From: a virus
Taxonomy: Duplodnaviria > Heunggongvirae > Uroviricota > Caudoviricetes
DNA: 23,278 nucleotides
Strand: one strand, 5' to 3'
IMG/VR virus record: IMGVR_UViG_2562617087_000022
The notes beneath the pieces were generated by a model. It saw nothing but the letters and a program-made list of their open reading frames with translations. It was not told the DNA's origin and searched no databases. Below, piece after piece: positions 2,189 through 23,278 of this stretch. The first letter of the stretch is position 1. Every line of letters begins with the position of its first letter. The position numbers and the translations under genes are program-made.

Positions 2189-3076
2189 TCAGGCTGCCAG
2201 ATCATCGTTTCTGATGGAAGCATAATAAGCTTTTTCTGCTTCTGCCGGAGGGATATGACCCAGCCTTCCCAGCAATCGTCGATTGTTATACCAGTCCACC
2301 CACGTGAGTGTGGCCAGTTCCACTTCTGCACGGTTTTTCCAGCTCTTACGGTGTATTACCTCCGCTTTGTAAAGACCATTGATGCTCTCCGCCATCGCGT
2401 TGTCATACGAGTCACCTGTACTCCCTGTTGATGCCAGCAGTTTTGCTTCTTTTAGTCGCTCCGTATAGGCCAGTGATATATACTGAGAACCTTTATCACT
2501 GTGATGGACTGTGCCGGACGGCCGACGGGCCCACAACGCCTGCTCCAGTGCATCCAGCACGAATGTCGTTTCCATAGACGATGAGACTCGCCACCCCACG
2601 ATACATCCGGCAAACACATCAATGATGAACGCCACATAGACGAAGCCCTGCCATGTGCTGACGTAAGTAAAATCAGCCACCCACAGCTGGTCAGGACGTT
2701 CTGCCACGAACTGACGGTTTACGCGGTCGCCTGCGGAAACGGCTTTCCGGCTGACGGTAGTACGGACCTTTTTACCCCGGAGAACACCGGCAAGTCCCAT
2801 AACCGCCATGAGGCGCGCCACTGTACATCTGGCCACCCTGATACCTTCGCGTAACAACTGGCGCCAGACTTTACGCACACCGTACACCTGATGATTTTCA
2901 TCGTATACGCGCTGTATCTCTCTCTTCAGCCAGTCATCGCGCTGAGCACGGGCACTGCGTTTATCAGGATGATGTCGCTGTTGCTGACAGTGGTAATACG
3001 TTGACGGGGCAATATGCAGTTCACTGCATACCGGTCCGACCCCGTACTGCTCACGCAGCTTATCCAGCAGCGGCAT
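2189..3076 (-). CDS. IS629 transposase OrfB (DDE integrase domain)
   Basis: 295-aa [18 protein letters not shown]...; recognised as IS629/IS1203 OrfB; a second, truncated copy is at 12118..12795. Confidence 0.9.
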   Translation of the reverse strand: MPLLDKLREQYGVGPVCSELHIAPSTYYHCQQQRHHPDKRSARAQRDDWLKREIQRVYDENHQVYGVRKVWRQLLREGIRVARCTVARLMAVMGLAGVLRGKKVRTTVSRKAVSAGDRVNRQFVAERPDQLWVADFTYVSTWQGFVYVAFIIDVFAGCIVGWRVSSSMETTFVLDALEQALWARRPSGTVHHSDKGSQYISLAYTERLKEAKLLASTGSTGDSYDNAMAESINGLYKAEVIHRKSWKNRAEVELATLTWVDWYNNRRLLGRLGHIPPAEAEKAYYASIRNDDLAA

Positions 3077-3402
3077 TATTTTTTCCAGAGGCGGTCGAAC
3101 TCCGCCTTCGCAAAATAAGCGGAAGCCTGGCGAAGGATATCGTTACTGCGGCGCAGTTCACGATTTTCACGTTCCAGCTCTTTCAGACGCTGACGTTCAG
3201 CGGTGGTGAGTCCACCATCACCACTCCCGGTATCCCGCTCATGCTGACGAACCCACACACGCAGAGTCTCTGGTGTACAGCCAATCTTTGGGGCAATGGA
3301 ACAAATTGCCGCCCATTGTGAGTCATATTCGCCCTGACTTTCCAGAACCATACGAACTGCTCGTTGACGGACCTCGGGGGAAAAACGTGTATTTTTAGTC
3401 AT
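3076..3402 (-). CDS. IS629 OrfA (HTH transposase subunit)
   Basis: 108-aa [29 protein letters not shown]...; the copy at 11792..12118 differs by one residue. Confidence 0.9.
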
Positions 3403-11209: not shown

Positions 11210-11737
11210 GTGGGGCGACTGGCCACTCAACATCCGCTGCTACTGTTGTATCAACACGATTCAACAATACCCGATATGTCTTCCATGCAGCCAGTAACGA
11301 TGCCTCTTCCTCCGTCGCAATATCCAAATCTACGGCATCCTGAAGTGGCGCAATATGCTCACTGGCTACCTGCATCAGGCTGTTTTTTGTTTCTTCTGCC
11401 TCCCGTACCCGAAACAGTTTTTCTGCTTCTGCATCTTTCGCCCAGGATGTGCCGTTCCACTTCTGACACTCTCCATCCGGCGACAACCAGGTAACATTTT
11501 CCGGTAACGGACCGAGTTCAGAAATAAATAACGCGTCGCCGGAAGCCACGTCATAAACCGTTTTACCCCGATGATCTTCAACGAGATGCCACGATGCCTC
11601 ATTACTGTTGAAAACAGCCACGAAGCCAGCCGGAATATCTGGCGGTGCAATATCGGTACTGTTTGCTGGCAGACCTGTATGAGGCGGAATGTATGCGTCA
11701 CCTTCACCAATAAATTCATTAGTTCCGGCCAGCAGAT
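11205..11737 (-). pseudogene. Tail fibre assembly protein (lambda Tfa / P2 G family), 5'-truncated by IS629
   Basis: Reading frame continues upstream of the listed ORF to the IS629 end: [51 protein letters not shown]...; about the first 16 codons are missing. Confidence 0.85.
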
Positions 11738-11791: not shown

Positions 11792-12118
11792 ATGACTAAA
11801 AATACACGTTTTTCCCCCGAGGTCCGTCAACGGGCAGTCCGTATGGTTCTGGAAAGTCAGGGCGAATATGACTCACAATGGGCGGCAATTTGTTCCATTG
11901 CCCCAAAGATTGGCTGTACACCAGAGACTCTGCGTGTGTGGGTTCGTCAGCATGAGCGGGATACCGGGGGCGGTGATGGTGGACTCACCACCGCTGAACG
12001 TCAGCGTCTGAAAGAGCTGGAACGTGAAAATCGTGAACTGCGCCGCAGTAACGATATCCTTCGCCAGGCTTCCGCTTATTTTGCGAAGGCGGAGTTCGAC
12101 CGCCTCTGGAAAAAATAA
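11792..12118 (+). CDS. IS629 OrfA (second copy)
   Basis: 108-aa ORF, one substitution relative to the copy at 3076..3402. Confidence 0.85.
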
Positions 12119-12795
12119 TGCCGCTGCTGGATAAGCTGCGTGAGCAGTACGGGGTCGGACCGGTATGCAGTGAACTGCATATTGCCCCGTCAACGTATTA
12201 CCACTGTCAGCAACAGCGACATCATCCGGATAAACGCAGTGCCCGTGCGCAGCGCGATGACTGGCTGAAGAGAGAGATACAGCGCGTATACGATGAAAAT
12301 CATCAGGTGTACGGTGTGCGTAAAGTCTGGCGCCAGTTGTTACGCGAAGGTATCAGGGTGGCCAGATGTACAGTGGCGCGCCTCATGGCGGTTATGGGAC
12401 TTGCCGGTGTTCTCCGGGGTAAAAAGGTCCGTACTACCGTCAGCCGGAAAGCCGTTTCCGCAGGCGACCGCGTAAACCGTCAGTTCGTGGCAGAACGTCC
12501 TGACCAGCTGTGGGTGGCTGATTTTACTTACGTCAGCACATGGCAGGGCTTCGTCTATGTGGCGTTCATCATTGATGTGTTTTCCGGATGTATCGTGGGG
12601 TGGCGAGTCTCATCGTCTATGGAAACGACATTCGTGCTGGATGCACTGGAGCAGGCGTTGTGGGCCCGTCGGCCGTCCGGCACAGTCCATCACAGTGATA
12701 AAGGTTCTCAGTATGTATCACTGGCCTATACGGAGCGACTAAAAGAAGCAAAACTGCTGGCATCAACAGGGAGTACAGGTGACTCGTATGACAAT
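12118..12795 (+). pseudogene. IS629 OrfB, C-terminally truncated
   Basis: Matches the first OrfB copy through ...STGSTGDSYDN, then non-homologous codons and a stop; the DDE domain is incomplete. Confidence 0.85.
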
Positions 12796-12826
12796 GTATT
12801 TTATTAGTTCACATACAATTATCAGA

Positions 12827-13141
12827 TTATTCTGGGAATAAGGTCTGAATATTCTTTTTTATTTTATAAAAATTGCATTCAACTCCGCTAGGCTGATTAG
12901 CCTGGTATGTTTCCTTGATGCTAACGGTATTGAAGGGGAGGTTGTCCTCTGGCCATTCGGCCATCCAGTAGGCAAATGCTGGGTTGCGCTTTATGAGTGC
13001 TAGCCCAGCCAGAAAGGCCGCGCGTTGCGCGCGGCTGCGTTCGGAGGCTGGCAGGCTATCGAGGTAATTGCACGCCTCCTGTTCACTCTTGACGGCGGCG
13101 GGCTTCAGATAGAAACTTATCCGTCTGGTTGGTGTCGTCAT
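12827..13141 (-). CDS. parR: ParR/StbB-like ribbon-helix-helix centromere-binding protein
   Basis: 104-aa ORF 4 nt downstream of parM; N-terminal ...DSLPASERSRAQRAAFLAGLAL... resembles R1 ParR; the C-terminal third is AT-rich and divergent. Confidence 0.65.
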   Translation of the reverse strand: MTTPTRRISFYLKPAAVKSEQEACNYLDSLPASERSRAQRAAFLAGLALIKRNPAFAYWMAEWPEDNLPFNTVSIKETYQANQPSGVECNFYKIKKNIQTLFPE

Positions 13142-13145
13142 TGGT

Positions 13146-14105
13146 TTACTCCTTGTTCATTGCGTACAACCCATTAACCAGAGCAAACTGTGGCACCCCG
13201 TCCGCGATGAAAGTCGCATTAACTCCGCAGGCTTCGCGGATAGCGGTTGCCACAATCTCCGCCCCGCCACCGACAACCATCACCCGCCCGTAACCCGAAA
13301 AAACCGCCAGCGCGCGGATCACGCGTTGTTTCAGTGTTTCTTCCTTTTCACGAATAACCGCCATCAGGCTGGCGTAATGCGCGTCATTGTGGATGTGCTG
13401 GCGCAGCCAGGCTTCATCATGGCGATGTTCGATAATGGTATTGGCGATGTGGTGACTGGTGCGCATACCGTTAGTGGCCATCACCGACAGTACGGCATCG
13501 GCCATCAGAGAAACGCCTACGTGTGGATCGCAAAACACCTGGCTGATACCTGCCAGTTGCCCCTGAACCTTTGCCACATCCAGCGTGGTTCCGCCCAAAT
13601 CCACAATCAGCAGGGATTCAAACGGACTCATGTCAGCCAGTGCCTTAAAGCCAGCAGGAATGGATTCAGGCATAACCCGTACGTTACGGATAGTGAATGC
13701 TTCGCCGTTCTGGTACTCCACCGGGCGCATGACGTTCGCTTTTTTGCGGTTGATGTTGGCCATGTCCGGCTGTGCGTTTGTATCGAAATACTCGCTCAGT
13801 GGCAGGGTGACAACCACATCCACTTCCTGTGGTGTGATGCCTGATTTGACCAGCGCGTGATGAATGGCAATTACATTCACATCGCTGTACTGGTATTGCG
13901 TGTCGGTCGTCTGGACAAAGCGATCGCTGACCGGATCAAAACCATAGCGCACGCCATCAAGCATGTAGTTCGCGGGCTGCGTGCCACCGAATGGCGCAGA
14001 CCATTCCGACTTGAAGCTGTTCGGGCTGATGGCGTTGCGGCGTTCGCCGTTCTCAGTCCATGCCAGCTTGATGTTGGTGGAGCCGTCGTCGATACAAATT
14101 TTCAT
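13146..14105 (-). CDS. parM: ParM/StbA actin-like plasmid segregation ATPase
   Basis: 319-aa ORF; clear colinear similarity to R1 ParM (MK.CIDDGSTNIKL..., ...YSDVNVIAIHHAL..., ...VMPESIPAG..., ...DLGGTTLD..., ...GGGAEI...). Confidence 0.9.
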   Translation of the reverse strand: MKICIDDGSTNIKLAWTENGERRNAISPNSFKSEWSAPFGGTQPANYMLDGVRYGFDPVSDRFVQTTDTQYQYSDVNVIAIHHALVKSGITPQEVDVVVTLPLSEYFDTNAQPDMANINRKKANVMRPVEYQNGEAFTIRNVRVMPESIPAGFKALADMSPFESLLIVDLGGTTLDVAKVQGQLAGISQVFCDPHVGVSLMADAVLSVMATNGMRTSHHIANTIIEHRHDEAWLRQHIHNDAHYASLMAVIREKEETLKQRVIRALAVFSGYGRVMVVGGGAEIVATAIREACGVNATFIADGVPQFALVNGLYAMNKE

Positions 14106-17010: not shown

Positions 17011-17376
17011 TTACTTCGTCATGCCATTCAGGGTGTCGCGGCAGGCTGTAGCCAGCCGCTGAATTTCCAGCACGGTGTCTTCTGTGTCGGCATGGCGATG
17101 TGTGATGCGGATGCTGTCGGCAATCACATCGACGATTGCAGAGGATGGGCGCTGGTAAATGCCAATAACGGACGGGGTGCCACCTTCAATGCGGTAAAGC
17201 CTGTAATTTCCCTCGTGGCTGTCAATCATGTAGCGACCATCAATAACAATCTTTCCGTCAGCGAGCTGCGGTACAGGCAGGGATTTCAGGTACATGTCAT
17301 AACGATCACGCACGCGAGCGGCAAGATCACGTTCTGTGTTGAGCAGGTATTCAAGAAAGTCGTTGGCGAGAATCAT
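17011..17376 (-). CDS. Hypothetical phage early protein
   Basis: 121-aa ORF with RBS AAGAGGA; ends 7 nt before gene A; protein-like composition. Confidence 0.55.
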   Translation of the reverse strand: MILANDFLEYLLNTERDLAARVRDRYDMYLKSLPVPQLADGKIVIDGRYMIDSHEGNYRLYRIEGGTPSVIGIYQRPSSAIVDVIADSIRITHRHADTEDTVLEIQRLATACRDTLNGMTK

Positions 17377-17448
17377 TGCGGCAATCCTCTTGTTACAGAT
17401 GTGCGAAGGCCTCCCGCCGCAAGGTGCAGGAAAGGCCCGGAACAGGAA

Positions 17449-17679
17449 TTAATGGAGTTTGTTTTGCTGCTGGATGAGCTGTTGAAACTCGTGCAGATCA
17501 TCCGCCAGATAGCTGAAAACAGAGGCGGAATAAATGTTTGATAGTGCGTGGCTGCGCTCATGCAGCATATTGATGTGCATGATTTGCGCGACGCGTGATG
17601 CGCGGGAAAGTCTGCGGTTGATTTCAGTCTGGATGTGACGACGCTCCGCGATAGCGCGGTGCTGTTTGCGGTCTGCCAT
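17449..17679 (-). CDS. Hypothetical small basic protein
   Basis: 76-aa ORF with GAGG RBS; first gene after the structured non-coding island. Confidence 0.5.
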   Translation of the reverse strand: MADRKQHRAIAERRHIQTEINRRLSRASRVAQIMHINMLHERSHALSNIYSASVFSYLADDLHEFQQLIQQQNKLH

Positions 17680-17848
17680 GGTGTGGCCTCTTTGCTCGGT
17701 GATAGAAATAACTCACCATCCAGAGTTGAGAATCTCGGGGTGGCGAGACGTACAGGGTTCTCAACACCGGAGAGCAAAGAATCCGGCCCGACCGAAGTCG
17801 GCCCCGTACGCCCCGCCATAATTCTGACGCGAAAAAGACGTGGCAATA

Positions 17849-17870
17849 CAGTACGCACAAAAAAACCGCT
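17849..17870 (-). terminator. Candidate intrinsic terminator (minus-strand transcript)
   Basis: Short GC stem AACCGC / GCGGTT with 4-nt loop, then 7 U on the minus strand; weak stem. Confidence 0.4.
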
Positions 17871-17941
17871 AGCGCGGTTATGCGCTTTGCTCTGTATCGG
17901 GTTGAGAATCCCGGCACCCGTTTTATGAGGTGCAGCGGAAA

Positions 17942-17970
17942 TGTAACCTGACCGATTGCGGCATGGCAAG
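17942..17970 (+). terminator. Candidate intrinsic terminator (plus-strand transcript)
   Basis: Stem CCGATTGC / GCAAGCGG (one mismatch) with 6-nt loop, followed by T7. Confidence 0.45.
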
Positions 17971-18001
17971 CGGTTTTTTTGTGTGTGCATGTTCTGGTTT
18001 C

Positions 18002-18301
18002 TTACTGGTTCAGAAAAAAATCAAAAACGTTATCGATGCGTTGCAGCAGCTCTTGCTGCATTGCTTCCGGCGTTTCCGGTTCGCCAGGTGCCCCCAGCGT
18101 TGCGCAGAAATCAGCGATTTCATGATGGAGCGTGAGGCGAATGGCAGGAGCCGTGGTTCTGGCGTGCTCCAGCTGATCCAGCAGTGCCAGCACAGCAGAC
18201 GGCGAGAGCATTGCGCGAAATGCCAGTAATTTTTGAGGCGTTGCCATTCGTTGCAGGGCAAATGCCAGTTCGCGTAGCTTCTGGTGGTTGATGGTGCTCA
18301 T
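18002..18301 (-). CDS. Hypothetical phage early protein
   Basis: 99-aa ORF; start overlaps the stop of the upstream gene (ATGA), indicating translational coupling. Confidence 0.5.
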   Translation of the reverse strand: MSTINHQKLRELAFALQRMATPQKLLAFRAMLSPSAVLALLDQLEHARTTAPAIRLTLHHEIADFCATLGAPGEPETPEAMQQELLQRIDNVFDFFLNQ

Positions 18302-18564
18302 GCTCTGGCTTCCTTCAGTAGCTGGTTAAACATGTGAGTAAGTGGATTGCTACACCCGAACGGCATCGGGTTTACGTGGTAAGAAGCCTGGCCTCCTGTT
18401 TTGCGAGCGCGACCACCTGTGCTGCGGTTTGTTCTGATGACTAAGCCGCCGCGCCAAAGTCGGCGTAACTCAGCATTAATGGCTGTGGTTGGGGTATTCA
18501 GTGCTGCGGCGATCTCTCCGCCGCTACACCCCGGATGAGTAGCGATGTAGTCCAGAATGGTCAT
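18298..18564 (-). CDS. Hypothetical protein, possible winged-helix DNA-binding fold
   Basis: 88-aa ORF, overlaps neighbours by 4 nt; ...GGEIAAALNTPTTAINAELRRLWRGGLV... looks HTH-like. Confidence 0.5.
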   Translation of the reverse strand: MTILDYIATHPGCSGGEIAAALNTPTTAINAELRRLWRGGLVIRTNRSTGGRARKTGGQASYHVNPMPFGCSNPLTHMFNQLLKEARA

Positions 18565-18764
18565 CTGCGTGGCTCCTGTACCTGTCGGATAAGATTTACT
18601 CGCGCCACGTTGGTGGCGCAGAAGTAAGTGCCGTCAGTGAGGTAGATGTGGTGTGCATCCTTTTCCGAACGATGTTTGTCGATAGTGGTAATCAGGCGTT
18701 CGTCGACCTCGTATTCGCGCCCTCTGGAGGTAAAGCGAACGACGGGAAAATGCTTAATTGCCAT
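18561..18764 (-). CDS. Hypothetical small protein
   Basis: 67-aa ORF in the coupled three-gene run. Confidence 0.45.
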   Translation of the reverse strand: MAIKHFPVVRFTSRGREYEVDERLITTIDKHRSEKDAHHIYLTDGTYFCATNVARVNLIRQVQEPRR

Positions 18765-18787
18765 TGCGCCCCCTTTGTCCAGTAACC

Positions 18788-19204
18788 CTATGCGTTAAAT
18801 ACGGCACGTTGCGCGTCATCAATGAATACAGCTTGAGAGCGTTCTATCAGGCGGAGATTTGTCAGAAGCTCTGACTCTTTTGTGTGGTAAGGCGTTATCA
18901 GGTATTTGCCGTGCAGTTCGGCAATAATGGTGTATTGCAGCATCATTGCTGAACCAAGAATATAAATGCAGCGTCCAATGCTGGACGGATTCATGGCTGC
19001 AACTGTTGACTGTGTTTTAAGAGTGTCGATTTCTTTGCTCTGTTCCTCAATAACTTTGGCTGCTTCAGGGGTGGCTATTGCGATGGTCAGTGCGTAAAGC
19101 GCTGCCATATGTTGATTATCTTTCTGGGCTGCCCTGGACAGCTTGTCTTGCTCTGCTGACACTATTTTTAATGTATTGATAATATTTTTTTCTTTTGCGT
19201 TCAT
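18788..19204 (-). CDS. Hypothetical protein
   Basis: 138-aa ORF with RBS ACGGAGA; AT-richer than its neighbours. Confidence 0.5.
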   Translation of the reverse strand: MNAKEKNIINTLKIVSAEQDKLSRAAQKDNQHMAALYALTIAIATPEAAKVIEEQSKEIDTLKTQSTVAAMNPSSIGRCIYILGSAMMLQYTIIAELHGKYLITPYHTKESELLTNLRLIERSQAVFIDDAQRAVFNA

Positions 19205-19317
19205 TTTATATCTCCGTTATTTACGTGTGCGAATACCTCCGCGAATGCGGATAGTTTTCAGGTTTTCGGGTTTAATCTGGTGTTCTGTTTAAGCTGTTAT
19301 TTGTCAGTGAAAAAGCG

Positions 19318-19410
19318 TTCAATCTTTTTTACTGAATGAATAATTCGCATAATCCCAATGGCGCAGGCCACCGAAATAATCAGAACAAGCCATGAGATAA
19401 ATATACTCAT
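19318..19410 (-). CDS. Putative 30-aa hydrophobic membrane peptide (not in the ORF track)
   Basis: MSIFISWLVLIISVACAIGIMRIIHSVKKI; ATG overlaps the stop of the upstream gene (ATGA); GGGGA 7 nt upstream. Confidence 0.3.
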
Positions 19411-19649
19411 GCGATATTCCCCAGCTTATATGGTTCAATGTGTTCCCCGCATTCTGCGGCACAGATCAGCTCGGAAAGTTCGTTAAGTGCATCCAGATCA
19501 TCAGCGTAAAAAGCAACGTCATACAAACTCCGGATTGCCCTGGTCAATGAGTCACGGGCTGCACGTTCAGCATGAGCGCCTGATGCACTTAAGCGAAAAT
19601 AAAATCGTTCAGGTGCTTTGTTAATGAGAGTTTTATATTCTTTGCCCAT
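19407..19649 (-). CDS. Hypothetical protein
   Basis: 80-aa ORF in the early operon. Confidence 0.5.
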   Translation of the reverse strand: MGKEYKTLINKAPERFYFRLSASGAHAERAARDSLTRAIRSLYDVAFYADDLDALNELSELICAAECGEHIEPYKLGNIA

Positions 19650-19660
19650 CGCAACGCCCT

Positions 19661-19939
19661 TTAATCTGCTTTCTGAATTTCAGCTTCTGAATCCATACAA
19701 ATAATTTCGATATAGGGTTCATCGCCATTAACCTGACGAGCCTTTTCAGCTTCGCTAATGATTTCTCGTACGGTCTGGTACGGAAGCTCCACAGTCAGGC
19801 GCGTACCGTTCAGATAAACGTAAGTAGCTGCGTTTTTTTCGGATGGAACAATTCCGTCAATGGCTGATGCGCGTAATAACAGTTCACCGCGAAAATCAAT
19901 AAAACGGATAAATACACCTTGTGCATGCTCTTTGGTCAT
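19661..19939 (-). CDS. Hypothetical protein
   Basis: Likely start at the internal ATG (MTKEHAQGVF...), 92 aa, giving a 10-bp gap to the upstream gene. Confidence 0.45.
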   Translation of the reverse strand: MTKEHAQGVFIRFIDFRGELLLRASAIDGIVPSEKNAATYVYLNGTRLTVELPYQTVREIISEAEKARQVNGDEPYIEIICMDSEAEIQKAD

Positions 19940-19949
19940 AAAGCACCTG

Positions 19950-20300
19950 TTATAAATCAGCCTGTTTAATAAAACTTTGCCCGCGAAGCAGACGATCAAC
20001 CGTGCGAAGTGCTTCGTATAATGTGAAATCCTGCCCGAAGTGATTGTCGCCGCAGTTCAATGCAAAAATGCGGTTCCCGGTAAACGGATTGCGTGGGCAT
20101 TTGTGGACCACGATTCCAGCTTTCTCAATCAGCCAGGCATGTTCGCCGATTTGTTTTACAGCGTGGCCATCCGGTGTTGCATGCGTCTCGTTCAGGTTAT
20201 AGCGACTGTTACTACGTGATGCACTGGTAGCGACGTGGTGTACATGGCGTTCTACGCCATTACGAAATTTGGAGTATGGATTATTAGCGTTTTTTTTCAT
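19950..20300 (-). CDS. Hypothetical protein
   Basis: 116-aa ORF in the early operon. Confidence 0.5.
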   Translation of the reverse strand: MKKNANNPYSKFRNGVERHVHHVATSASRSNSRYNLNETHATPDGHAVKQIGEHAWLIEKAGIVVHKCPRNPFTGNRIFALNCGDNHFGQDFTLYEALRTVDRLLRGQSFIKQADL

Positions 20301-20321
20301 GATGGTGCTCTGTTCATTGTT

Positions 20322-20525
20322 TTAGCTGTTAGCCAAAGCGTCTTTTAACATCGCCACAAGGTTTACTTCAGGCTTTTCCATTTTGGCGCGTTTGGGGCGG
20401 ATAATAATTCGACCGTCAGCCAACATCTTTTTGCATGTATTAAGAGGGATACCTGTTATCTCTGCATATTTCTGCAGGGATACATAGGGGGCATTCACAT
20501 TGATATTGATGGTTATACCTGACAT
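20322..20525 (-). CDS. Putative Cox/Apl/excisionase-like DNA-binding protein
   Basis: 67-aa ORF; ...YVSLQKYAEITGIPLNTCKKMLADGRI... helix-turn-helix-like; second gene of the leftward operon. Confidence 0.4.
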   Translation of the reverse strand: MSGITININVNAPYVSLQKYAEITGIPLNTCKKMLADGRIIIRPKRAKMEKPEVNLVAMLKDALANS

Positions 20526-20541
20526 CCCACTAGCCTCCTGA

Positions 20542-20748
20542 TCAGGAAGATTTGTTTTGTTCTTTCTGGGTTAGCTCTAGGCCGCGAAGGGAGATCATGC
20601 GCGCCATGTTAGAGGATGAGCGTTGTTCTTTAGCTGCCATTTCATCAATGACGGCTCGCTCCTCGAGGGACAGCCGAAGTGCCAGTCTTGGACCTGTGGC
20701 GGTGTTACGCGGAATGCGTGATCTGGTATCGTGAAGAACTTGTTTCAT
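20542..20748 (-). CDS. Putative ribbon-helix-helix regulator (Cro-like position)
   Basis: 68-aa ORF, first gene leftward of the divergent control region; ...RLALRLSLEERAVIDEMAAKEQRSSSNMARMISLRG... looks RHH-like. Confidence 0.4.
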   Translation of the reverse strand: MKQVLHDTRSRIPRNTATGPRLALRLSLEERAVIDEMAAKEQRSSSNMARMISLRGLELTQKEQNKSS

Positions 20749-20790
20749 AGTGGTATATTGTGATCATCTAATAGCTCGTGAAATCATTTT

Positions 20791-20808
20791 GGTATCAAAA
20801 AAGATACC
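20791..20808. promoter_or_regulatory. Palindromic operator candidate GGTATC-N6-GATACC in the divergent control region
   Basis: Perfect inverted repeat overlapping the spacer of a leftward TTGACA-N17-CAAAAT promoter candidate. Confidence 0.45.
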
Positions 20809-20823
20809 TGTCAAGGTTTTTGT

Positions 20824-21228
20824 ATGAAAAATGATATTGGTCGGCGGTTGCGTGAGGAAAGGGAAAGATTGGGACTTAGTCAAGTTGCCATGAGCGACAT
20901 TGGTGGAGTCAAAAAGCTAACTCAGCTTAGATATGAGAAAGGAGATAGCTTTCCTGATGCTGCGTATTTGGCAGCGCTGTCTCGTTTTGGCCTTGATGTT
21001 CAGTATGTTGTGTTGGGAATTCACTCACCTGAAACTTATAACGATGATGAGCAGGAATTGATTACTCGCTTTCGAGCAGCTTCGTTAGATGTGAAAAACG
21101 CGGTGATTGGGGCTTTAAAAGGTGCGATCAGTGAAAAGGAAACTCAGCCATCAGGACGTGAGTTAAATATTTCTGGTGGTAATAACCGTATCGCTGGTCG
21201 TGACTATAACGAAACTAAGGGTAGGTGA
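20824..21228 (+). CDS. CI-like immunity repressor (XRE-family HTH)
   Basis: 134-aa ORF; N-terminal ...RLREERERLGLSQVAMSDIGGVKKLTQLRYEKGDSFPDAAYLAALSRFG... HTH; divergent from the early operon and co-directional with the integrase. Confidence 0.8.
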   Translation: MKNDIGRRLREERERLGLSQVAMSDIGGVKKLTQLRYEKGDSFPDAAYLAALSRFGLDVQYVVLGIHSPETYNDDEQELITRFRAASLDVKNAVIGALKGAISEKETQPSGRELNISGGNNRIAGRDYNETKGR

Positions 21229-21243
21229 TAGTAGGGAGGTGAC

Positions 21244-21894
21244 ATGGCCGTCAACTCAAACGGTTCAAACAATCGCGTTGCTGGGCGTGATTTTCACGAA
21301 AAGAATATTCAGATAGAGCGATATGATGGTTCTCATACCGTCAATATCGCAATCCCTTCGAATAATGATGATGACGATCGCCCTTTGCTTAAGGCTCAGC
21401 GTAAGGAGCTAAATAGCTTGGTTGCTGCTATTGCAGAAGCTAGCAATACTGAAGCGTTTATTATTTGGCAAAAAGTACATGCGGAGATTGGTGTAGCTGG
21501 TATTGATGATATGACAGTAAATCAATATAAAACAGCGGAGAGTTTTCTGCATGCAATGCTTGAGCGATGTAAAGATCATGATGCCTGTAAGGCTCTTGTA
21601 AGTTTATTACTACGTAACAGTGAAGACTGTGGACTTCGACAAAAACTTCTGCGGTATTGCCATATCAATTTCGGTACAGGACGTTTAAACGATCTTACTC
21701 GTTCTCAGTTACAGTCTGCATTGTCGTGGTTAGAGCAACAATCGGCATCAAGCCACATAGAGAGTTCGACCTTACCAGAAGTCCGACTTCGTGCTTCAGA
21801 ATTAATCCGACTTTATCCAAAAGAAATAATATTCTTTATCTGCGTAGGGGTTTTGGTAGGCGGTGTCATTTCTAGGGCGTTTTTTAATTTGTAA
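21244..21894 (+). CDS. Hypothetical membrane-anchored protein (C-terminal TM helix), lysogeny-side cargo
   Basis: 216-aa ORF with strong GGGAGG RBS; AT-rich; C-terminal ...IIFFICVGVLVGGVISRAFFNL; N-terminus shares a motif with the repressor C-terminus. Confidence 0.6.
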   Translation: MAVNSNGSNNRVAGRDFHEKNIQIERYDGSHTVNIAIPSNNDDDDRPLLKAQRKELNSLVAAIAEASNTEAFIIWQKVHAEIGVAGIDDMTVNQYKTAESFLHAMLERCKDHDACKALVSLLLRNSEDCGLRQKLLRYCHINFGTGRLNDLTRSQLQSALSWLEQQSASSHIESSTLPEVRLRASELIRLYPKEIIFFICVGVLVGGVISRAFFNL

Positions 21895-22276: not shown

Positions 22277-23278
22277 ATGTCGGTTCGTAAGATTCCATCA
22301 GGTAAATGGCTTTGTGAATGTTATCCCTACGGGGCATCGGGAAAACGCATTCGTAAACAGTTTGCGACAAAAAGTGAGGCGCTCTCTTATGAGCGCCGTT
22401 TAATGAATAGTAGAGTTGGAGACGAGTTTCAAGATGGTTCTGGTCCTCGTCTTTCTGAGTTGATTGCTCGTTGGTTTGAGATGTACGGTAAAACCTTGTC
22501 CTCTGGTGCAGAGCGCAAAGTCAAACTTGAGGCGATTTGTTCCAGGCTGGGAGATCCATTTGCTTCTCAGTTTGACAAAAATATGTTTGCTACTTATCGG
22601 GAAAGAAGGCTATCAGGAGAATGGAATCCCAAGGGGAAGAAAAAACTTAGTGAAGCAACCGTTAATCGCGAGCAGTCATATCTACATGCTGTTTTTGCCG
22701 AACTGAAGCGCCTTGGGGAGTGGTCTGGTGAAAACCCCCTGACTGGTATTCGCAAGTTTCGTGAGGAAGAAAAGGAACTGGCGTTTCTGTATGTAGATGA
22801 GATTGAACGCCTTCTGATTGCGTGTGATGAGTCACGGAATAAAGATTTGGGGGTTGTTGTCCGTATTGGGCTTGCGACTGGTGCTCGGTGGAGTGAAGCA
22901 GAAGGATTAAAGCAATCTCAAGTACTGCCCGGTCGAATCACATTTGTTAAAACTAAAGGAAAGAAGAACCGCACTGTACCGATTTCACCTCAATTGCAAG
23001 CTATGCTTCCTAAAAAACGAGGAGCGCTATTTTCACCATGTTATGAGGCTTTTGACGCTGCAATTAAGAGAGCGAAGATCGAGCTTCCTGATGGGCAATT
23101 AACTCATGTGCTACGTCACACGTTTGCCAGTCATTTTATGATGCGGGGTGGAAATATTCTTGTGTTGCAAAAAATACTGGGGCATAGCGATATAAAAATG
23201 ACTATGCGTTATGCGCATTTTGCTCCAGGTCATTTAGAGGCTGCTGTTGAATTGAACCCTTTTGACAATAGAGGGTAA
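22277..23278 (+). CDS. int: Tyrosine integrase (P2-family site-specific recombinase)
   Basis: 333-aa ORF; catalytic pattern ...RIGLATGARWSEA..., ...HVLRHTFASHFMMRGGNILVLQKILGHSDIKMTMRYAHF...; reads toward the right window edge. Confidence 0.92.
   Translation: MSVRKIPSGKWLCECYPYGASGKRIRKQFATKSEALSYERRLMNSRVGDEFQDGSGPRLSELIARWFEMYGKTLSSGAERKVKLEAICSRLGDPFASQFDKNMFATYRERRLSGEWNPKGKKKLSEATVNREQSYLHAVFAELKRLGEWSGENPLTGIRKFREEEKELAFLYVDEIERLLIACDESRNKDLGVVVRIGLATGARWSEAEGLKQSQVLPGRITFVKTKGKKNRTVPISPQLQAMLPKKRGALFSPCYEAFDAAIKRAKIELPDGQLTHVLRHTFASHFMMRGGNILVLQKILGHSDIKMTMRYAHFAPGHLEAAVELNPFDNRG

Follow-up and report, generated by a model that had tools for sequence, protein, structure and literature searches.

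Does the short hydrophobic ORF that overlaps the end of an 80-codon gene in a prophage early operon encode a functional protein and, if so, what might that protein do? The DNA analysed is a viral stretch of 23,278 nucleotides (the window), in which the original prediction had placed an unannotated, translationally coupled ORF of 30 codons on the minus strand. Inspection of the reading frame confirmed its start: the minus-strand ATG lies at 19410-19408, the first 30 codons read MSIFISWLVLIISVACAIGIMRIIHSVKKI, and the 80-codon gene upstream ends in a TGA that overlaps this ATG as ATGA. The extent required revision. Codon 31 is GAA rather than a stop, and the frame adds ERFFTDK before a TAA at 19299-19297; position 19318, taken as the end, falls within an ORF whose true extent is 19297-19410, or 37 codons. 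Similarly, the gap before the next gene, put at 110 bp, measures 92 nt (19205-19296) to the start codon at 19204. The features at the core of this locus are as follows.

19297..19410, minus strand: small ORF, 37 codons plus TAA, MSIFISWLVLIISVACAIGIMRIIHSVKKIERFFTDK; intact in 99/99 sequences, pN/pS 0.23
19407..19410, minus strand: ATGA start/stop overlap with the upstream gene (translational coupling), 88/88 and 99/99 sequences
19417..19422, minus strand: Shine-Dalgarno-like purine tract GGGGAA, 7 nt 5' of the ATG and within the 3' end of the upstream coding sequence
19407..19649, minus strand: upstream gene, 80 aa, DUF4754 (PF15946, phrog_2549)
19205..19296, minus strand: 92-nt intergenic gap from the small ORF to the next gene (18788-19204)

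Nor is the ORF unannotated. It is present in RefSeq (WP_000021655.1, hypothetical protein), in the strain Sakai genome (ECs_5738, 'membrane protein'), in phage P88 (gp07, 'membrane protein', YP_009113050.1), in vB_EcoM-569R5 ('putative membrane protein') and in UniRef ('Prophage membrane protein'). The Sakai tag is out of series, lying between ECs_2625 and ECs_2626, which suggests that the entry was added later. A UniRef-linked look-up found the exact window peptide on at least 1000 contigs. The Shae_phiSM and 520873 records leave the ORF uncalled, yet it is intact in both.

Source prophage and early operon

Many E. coli O157:H7 chromosomes contain the 1.7-kb region around the small ORF at 100% identity. 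In strain Sakai the same region is annotated as "prophage Sp13, P2-like phage" and is located between yecA and the leuZ-cysT-glyW tRNA genes; the layout of the window matches that of Sakai, with tRNAs, tail genes, IS elements and integrase. We take the Sp13 prophage of E. coli O157:H7 to be CP-933T of strain EDL933. The nearest phages in the collection are the P88-like Xuanwuvirus (Peduoviridae), with 85-91% DNA identity. The tRNAs, the integrase and the head of the early operon are located as follows.

701-999 of the window: three tRNAs
22277-23278 of the window: integrase
20786..20814, minus strand: promoter-like site TTGACA-17-CAAAAT, a consensus match only, at the head of the leftward early operon
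20824-21228, plus strand: repressor gene, faced by the promoter-like site

Behind the promoter-like site lies a minus-strand P2-family early operon of typical layout. It begins with an Arc-like gene (a label taken from the annotation of a related phage), a Cox-like gene (phrog_575), DUF4761, a 92-aa gene (phrog_3800), DUF4754 and the small ORF, and continues with a 138-aa gene, a 67-aa gene, a MarR-like regulator and an Ead/Ea22-like gene. The operon ends with a derepression/C4-RNA module, a 121-aa gene and the 940-aa gpA replication nuclease. The small ORF thereby sits between the switch region and the replication genes. The ATGA overlap, together with the gene order from Cox-like to gpA, supports the coupled position inside the early operon that had been proposed, the small ORF being apparently coupled in translation to its upstream gene.

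Gene content varies in this part of the prophage. Some lineages (among L092-L095, L103 and L108) have an unrelated 84-aa gene in place of the middle gene between DUF4761 and DUF4754 (window 19661-19939), and L105 lacks that gene; DUF4761, the 80-aa gene and the small ORF are retained, and the genes further downstream vary. To judge by such comparisons, the early region around the small ORF is a mosaic, and a conserved hairpin that follows the ORF lies at a module boundary.

Several further observations concern the prophage as a whole. Rfam matches to C4 antisense RNA (78.5 bits) and isrK (63 bits) occur at window 17736-17933 on the minus strand, inside a 205-aa ORF (17373-17990) that is labelled antirepressor in Sakai and overlaps the 76-aa 'derepression protein' gene (ORF 17449-17679). 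This region looks like a P1/P4-style RNA immunity module within a P2-like prophage. Two genes labelled in Sakai as plasmid partition genes (stbA and a second) adjoin gpA downstream, at window 12827-14105 on the minus strand. The late region is interrupted by two IS3-family copies and an IS009 RNA match (window 2189-3402, 11792-13100 and 11242-11440), the IS3-family copies having ALIL frameshift pseudoknot matches at 3005-3121 (minus) and 12073-12189 (plus); the prophage in the window is therefore defective. The IS content differs in Sakai's copy of the same prophage, which has IS629 and IS30.

Conservation and coding status

The small ORF was compared across 99 sequences, comprising the window and 98 related loci taken from annotated phage and genome records, IMG/VR contigs and assemblies. 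Addition of three more divergent loci brought the set to 52 distinct DNA haplotypes. The ORF is open, with its ATG at the overlap position, in all 99 sequences, and encodes 37 aa in 88 of them, 45 aa in seven and 41 aa in four. The ATGA was present in all 88 sequences checked for it, and the divergent lineages L103, L105 and L108 retain GCATGA at the junction. In every lineage the ATG is preceded at 7-9 nt by a purine tract (GGGGAA, GGGAA, GAGGAG or GGAGA), which doubles as coding sequence for the end of the upstream protein.

Pairwise comparison of codons 1-33 gave a pN/pS of 0.23 in the ORF's own frame (bootstrap 0.13-0.43); the remaining sense frames gave 1.47 and 1.35. Two of the antisense frames gave 1.10 and 1.33; the third shares wobble positions with the small ORF and is also low, at 0.32. 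This third frame, an antisense ORF on the plus strand, was rejected as the coding frame, having a stop in 74/99 sequences. For the adjoining DUF4754 gene, pN/pS was 0.13. Synonymous divergence across the small ORF is 0.20, and the DNA is therefore free to change. Synonymous codons are found at conserved residues, with three at S6 (TCA/TCC/TCG), four each at S13 and A17, and three at G19. A hand tally from the codon table gave about 47 non-synonymous versus 33 synonymous alleles. As non-synonymous alleles are not rare, the constraint is moderate, and many of the peptide changes are I/V/L/A swaps, tolerable in any hydrophobic helix.

The divergent lineages L103, L105 and L108 offer the strongest argument for a gene. 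In L105 and L108 the upstream 80-aa protein drops to 30-42% identity, and in L105 the precomputed Pfam matches no longer list it as DUF4754. The small peptide in these two lineages keeps 57-74% identity, rising to 62-92% over residues 1-24. The frame is open also in lineages with only 62-76% DNA identity. Conservation of the ORF had been proposed as the check on the original prediction, and its loss in homologues with intact flanks as the observation that would speak against it; we found the ORF intact in 99/99 sequences, with a pN/pS well below the values above 1.3 of the other sense frames, and saw no such loss, the peptide instead outlasting the identity of its upstream neighbour.

It could still be argued that the ORF is open by chance, without being a functional gene, and is conserved because the DNA is young or otherwise constrained. 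Chance alone often produces ORFs of such length (the 4-kb stretch 17500-21500 overlaps 75 that encode 20 aa or more), and the ORF by itself therefore proves nothing. It is conservation that lifts it above chance, since neither youth nor a general constraint on the DNA fits a frame that stays open at this level of synonymous divergence and in such distant lineages, with a pN/pS specific to one frame and a conserved start context. We regard the absence of a gene as very improbable. The gene is real and under purifying selection, and its coupling signals are conserved. The ORF is very probably translated, on the evidence of these comparisons, and we are confident that it is a genuine membrane peptide gene.

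Two interrupted copies were encountered. One (L104; E. coli PEC389, 2001-2050) comes from a badly decayed prophage and has an IS1 within the small ORF and a second IS1 upstream of DUF4754, the rest of the prophage being deleted. The other (L099; phage 503458, NC_049341.1, 125-470) carries frameshifts in both the DUF4754 gene and the small ORF. Decay of the small ORF was rejected as an account of the phage 503458 copy, as DUF4754 is frameshifted in the same record, which points to errors in sequencing or to a prophage in decay, as opposed to a specific loss of the small ORF. Both copies are uninformative on loss of the small ORF. Searched by sequence and by coordinates, the novel-gene tables from Sakai Ribo-seq do not list the small ORF. 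Such an absence from lists compiled on lysogens is what a repressed operon would lead one to expect. We found no proteomic record of the product.

The distribution of the family was examined by several routes. A protein search with the 37-aa peptide, padded with four in-frame upstream residues, returned 70 clusters at 90% identity, every one of them with an Escherichia name; the exact look-up adds the labels Salmonella enterica and "Enterobacteriaceae", and a Citrobacter rodentium phage carries the small ORF as well. A profile search of 1.84 billion representatives gave only 18, all recognisably of the same family and with 41-aa types included, and a scan of genome contigs with DUF4754 gave two loci only. 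The P0128 cluster (the 41-aa type of L103) is found on about 1000 contigs. Small-ORF DNA is present in 1381/5426 complete E. coli genomes, placing the peptide in about a quarter of them. These searches point to a small family, that of P88-like prophages of Escherichia and close relatives. The block also occurs, at 96% protein identity, on a 226-kb contig (NZ_JBQPOM010000071.1) labelled Vagococcus sp. WN89Y, a Firmicute; the label is probably due to contamination or a mislabelled assembly.

No family was matched by the peptide in Pfam (none at an E-value of 0.1 or better), PHROGs, NCBIfam, PADLOC or the PDB sequences, and PADLOC models run against the peptide and its neighbours gave nothing bar one meaningless match at E=0.05. 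A literature search that covered the protein accession and locus tag, the two neighbouring DUFs (DUF4754 and DUF4761) and the fil and dhr genes of phage 186 returned nothing, and two CP-933T papers mention the prophage in passing only.

The conserved hairpin downstream of the ORF

The gap that follows the small ORF is variable over its first ~45 nt and conserved in its second half, where the following feature is located.

19238..19251, minus strand: hairpin UCCGC-AUUC-GCGGA in the operon-sense RNA, with an A-rich tract before it and GG after it

The conserved element as a whole spans window 19228-19262 on the minus strand. The hairpin lies 45-59 nt past the stop codon and is found in all lineages, whatever gene follows. 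Among its 16 distinct versions, 98.8% of cells are paired. In four versions the loop-closing pair changes from CG to UA, a compensatory change, and the loop is variable. Three one-sided changes were observed, all of which give G.U in the sense RNA and C-A mismatches on the other strand. As the G.U variants fit the sense RNA only, the variants favour a hairpin that acts on the sense strand. The hairpin appears in the minimum-free-energy fold, and no Rfam family matches it.

In the sense direction no U-run follows the hairpin; read on the plus strand, it has a T-rich run behind it and a terminator-like score. An assignment as a P2/186-type terminator was rejected, since the terminators that P2 and 186 have at the corresponding place in the operon are different. 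Promoter-like and terminator-like matches near the small ORF occur in the number expected by chance. The hairpin is probably a site of processing, stability or protein binding in the sense RNA. A second candidate structure, a start-codon hairpin pairing CAUGA with UCAUG of the S6-W7 codons, was rejected as a conserved RNA constraint, with a z of -0.05 versus shuffles and a synonymously varying S6 codon.

The presence of this element raises the question of whether the small ORF is mainly a cis-acting translated leader, the translation of which would regulate the genes that follow (through a block on Rho, for instance, or an effect on how the gap hairpin folds), with the peptide itself of little importance. 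The compensatory changes in a hairpin behind the stop codon fit such a leader, as does the constancy of the ORF-plus-hairpin unit where the downstream gene set varies. However, selection acts on the amino acids and leaves synonymous change free, and the stretch of some 45 nt that links stop and hairpin is variable. Furthermore, the frameshifted ORF variants bring the stop 24 nt nearer to a hairpin that is unchanged. We consider a leader function highly unlikely, and the properties of the peptide itself are considered below.

The peptide, its candidate partners and known small proteins

The 37-aa peptide has a GRAVY of 1.16 and a single hydrophobic helix, and can be divided as follows.

19348..19407, minus strand: predicted transmembrane helix, codons 2-21, SIFISWLVLIISVACAIGIM, from hydropathy and AlphaFold2
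19300..19347, minus strand: basic amphipathic tail, codons 22-37, RIIHSVKKIERFFTDK, predicted to be cytoplasmic
19310..19314, minus strand: T5 run, codons 33-34, where a 1-nt difference leads to the 45-aa tail, as placed by sequence comparison

The 19-residue Kyte-Doolittle mean has its maximum of 2.68 at residues 3-21, and the tail contains five K/R versus two D/E, with a net charge of +3 and a hydrophobic moment of 0.72. These values agree with the single predicted transmembrane helix and basic tail of the original prediction. AlphaFold2, run with a 32-sequence alignment, predicts one continuous helix over residues 2-35 (pLDDT 87.5, with 93-96 across residues 1-20). Given the positive tail, and only Met-Ser ahead of the hydrophobic stretch, the positive-inside rule predicts an N-out/C-in topology, with the C-terminus probably in the cytoplasm; the KRRK-type ends of the 41-aa forms agree with this. 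A lipoprotein or cleaved signal peptide was rejected: no basic residue precedes the hydrophobic stretch, and homologues have A, I, S, Y, M or F in place of Cys16.

Four residues (F4, W7, L10, I11) are invariant in the 32-protein alignment, and conservation is at least 90% at S6 and S13. Conservation in the helix is highest at F4, S6, W7, L10, I11, S13, A17, I18 and G19. The hydrophobic face of the tail is conserved at I23, I24, V27, I30 and F34; positions 15, 25, 29, 32 and 36 are variable, as are the last 3-4 residues. The 45-aa variant reads ...KKIERFSLVNNDTNKTSN and is found in 7/99 sequences as well as in many protein clusters and contigs, while 41-aa variants end in KRRK, ERRK or KRHK. 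Short clusters also occur, of 25 aa, of 28 aa (from an internal Met) and, in E. fergusonii, of 30 aa. The last four residues are dispensable on this evidence. The functional core appears to comprise residues 1-30 or so, because the frameshifted 45-aa tails and the 30-aa E. fergusonii form persist on many contigs.

Which partner such a helix might have is suggested in part by the gene order. A DUF4754-type gene precedes the small ORF in all 99 sequences and in L103, L105 and L108. AlphaFold2 models the DUF4754 protein as a three-helix protein (pLDDT 70.5), and a PDB fold search with the model gave generic helical matches only, none with E below 1. The peptide could thus be a membrane anchor or small subunit of the DUF4754-like protein, with coupling providing matched amounts of the two and the basic cytoplasmic tail holding the acidic three-helix protein at the inner membrane, the site at which both would then function jointly. 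The ATGA overlap is indeed present at every locus, even where the 80-aa protein is only 30% identical, and the two families have similarly narrow distributions. The DUF4754 protein is predicted to be soluble and helical and is acidic by residue count, to set against the basic tail of the peptide. However, the peptide helix is far more conserved than DUF4754, and the type of tail does not track DUF4754 divergence: L103 combines an 81%-identical DUF4754 with a 41-aa tail. The dispensability of the last tail residues also argues against this role, which we judge to be unlikely. As the helix changes less than the coupled phage protein, a slow-evolving partner is a likelier source of the constraint than the fast-evolving DUF4754. 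That partner might be a host inner-membrane protein or, through self-association, the peptide itself; relative conservation would suggest a host target.

The original prediction pointed out that small membrane peptides of phage early regions are often host-cell inhibitors or toxins; no direct sign of toxicity emerged for this one. Type I toxins such as Hok, TisB, Fst and the Ldr-type peptides have a small hydrophobic helix and a charged tail. They are described as about 20-50 residues long, with one hydrophobic helix and a charged tail, and are often found on mobile elements (PMC12648545). By analogy, the present peptide might be a membrane-damaging toxin acting in the manner of a type I toxin or holin, which would oligomerise in the inner membrane and dissipate its potential, leading to host shutdown or to the timing of events early in infection. 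The size, the single hydrophobic helix and the charged C-terminal tail resemble those toxins, and the small-xxx-small spacings S13/A17 and A15/G19 in the window peptide could support self-association. On the other hand, no toxin or holin family was matched in Pfam or PHROGs, and no antisense RNA was found: Rfam gave nothing meaningful (no family at threshold on 18700-19800) and the promoter-like matches are at chance level; a novel sRNA would be conceivable. The small ORF is without a separate transcription unit and lies outside any lysis cassette. Finally, all 99 sequences have it intact, and cryptic prophages show no sign that its inactivation has been selected. A damaging toxin is accordingly a doubtful explanation, to which we give little weight.

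The reading that we lean towards, with slightly better than even confidence, is that of an ATGA-coupled early-operon gene of a P88-like (Xuanwuvirus, P2 family) prophage, encoding a single-pass inner-membrane peptide that would bind a conserved partner. Ribosomes ending the DUF4754 gene would reinitiate at the ATGA, aided by the Shine-Dalgarno-like tract. The product would be a 37-residue single-pass inner-membrane peptide with its helix at about residues 2-21 and its basic tail in the cytoplasm, made, if gene position is a guide, only once the early operon of the prophage is derepressed. Its conservation suggests that it may bind by sequence-specific helix-helix contacts to a conserved partner in the inner membrane, which is most likely a host protein, and may thereby play a part in host takeover, for example in envelope or division control.

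A bolder version of this binding model, which we put forward as tentative and possible rather than probable, would make the peptide the founding member of a phage early effector family, with a conserved helix that docks on one specific and conserved E. coli inner-membrane protein. The target might be a divisome, transporter, protease or Sec/YidC component that is switched off or redirected. The peptide would act in the first minutes of P88-like lytic growth, and the hairpin would be a separate RNA control element of the early operon. Little work has gone into small membrane proteins, and phage early genes have already yielded specific inhibitors of host machines; the peptide would be a cheap candidate for an expression and partner screen.

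Comparison with known systems places the peptide as follows. With the type I toxins (Hok/Gef, TisB, Ldr, Fst, ZorO) it shares small size, a hydrophobic helix and a charged tail, but it has no sequence match to them and no transcription unit of its own, the ORF being coupled within an operon. Holins and lysis proteins belong to an endolysin-adjacent cassette, as opposed to a position between switch and replication genes, and no PHROG lysis family matched the peptide.

In other P2-family phages, the comparable early stretch encodes Orf78 and B in P2, and Dhr and Fil in phage 186, where the record for Fil states that "overexpression blocks cell division". Like the peptide, Fil is a small protein from an early lytic operon of a P2-family phage, encoded after the switch genes. 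Its C-terminus, IIRIVHFVIK, is identical to the peptide's IMRIIHSVKK at 6/10 positions (L101 2453-2680; window 19324-19353). Fil differs in being 75 aa long and in having no full hydrophobic helix. BLASTP gave no alignment of Fil with the peptide, and a Smith-Waterman score of 29 corresponds to a shuffle P of about 0.03-0.05 in what is a post-hoc comparison. Homology with Fil is not supported, as there is no BLASTP alignment and the 10-residue likeness is too weak; the likeness serves as a lead only.

AcrZ, MgtS, MgrB and Caulobacter SidA are small single-pass regulators that bind larger membrane proteins. Two of them, AcrZ and MgtS, are treated in bioRxiv 10.64898/2026.09.28.754932. These proteins are chromosomal and stress-regulated, whereas the peptide is phage-borne, early lytic and without sequence similarity to them; by analogy, it would share with them the size class, the single conserved helix and the presumed binding to a larger membrane protein.

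The closest likeness is to the P88 gp07 / ECs_5738 family, to which the peptide belongs, on comparison of sequence and gene order, as the product of an already annotated gene and which falls in no characterised family. Sakai ECs_5738 and RefSeq WP_000021655.1 are identical in sequence to the window peptide, P88 gp07 is 95% identical, and the other Xuanwuvirus phages are 84-95% identical. The P88 gp07 and ECs_5738 records likewise describe 37 aa with one predicted transmembrane helix, under labels that are automatic or curator-given. Throughout the 99 sequences and in L103, L105 and L108, the gene lies directly after a DUF4754-type gene with a 4-nt overlap, and there is no difference of substance between the window peptide and this family.
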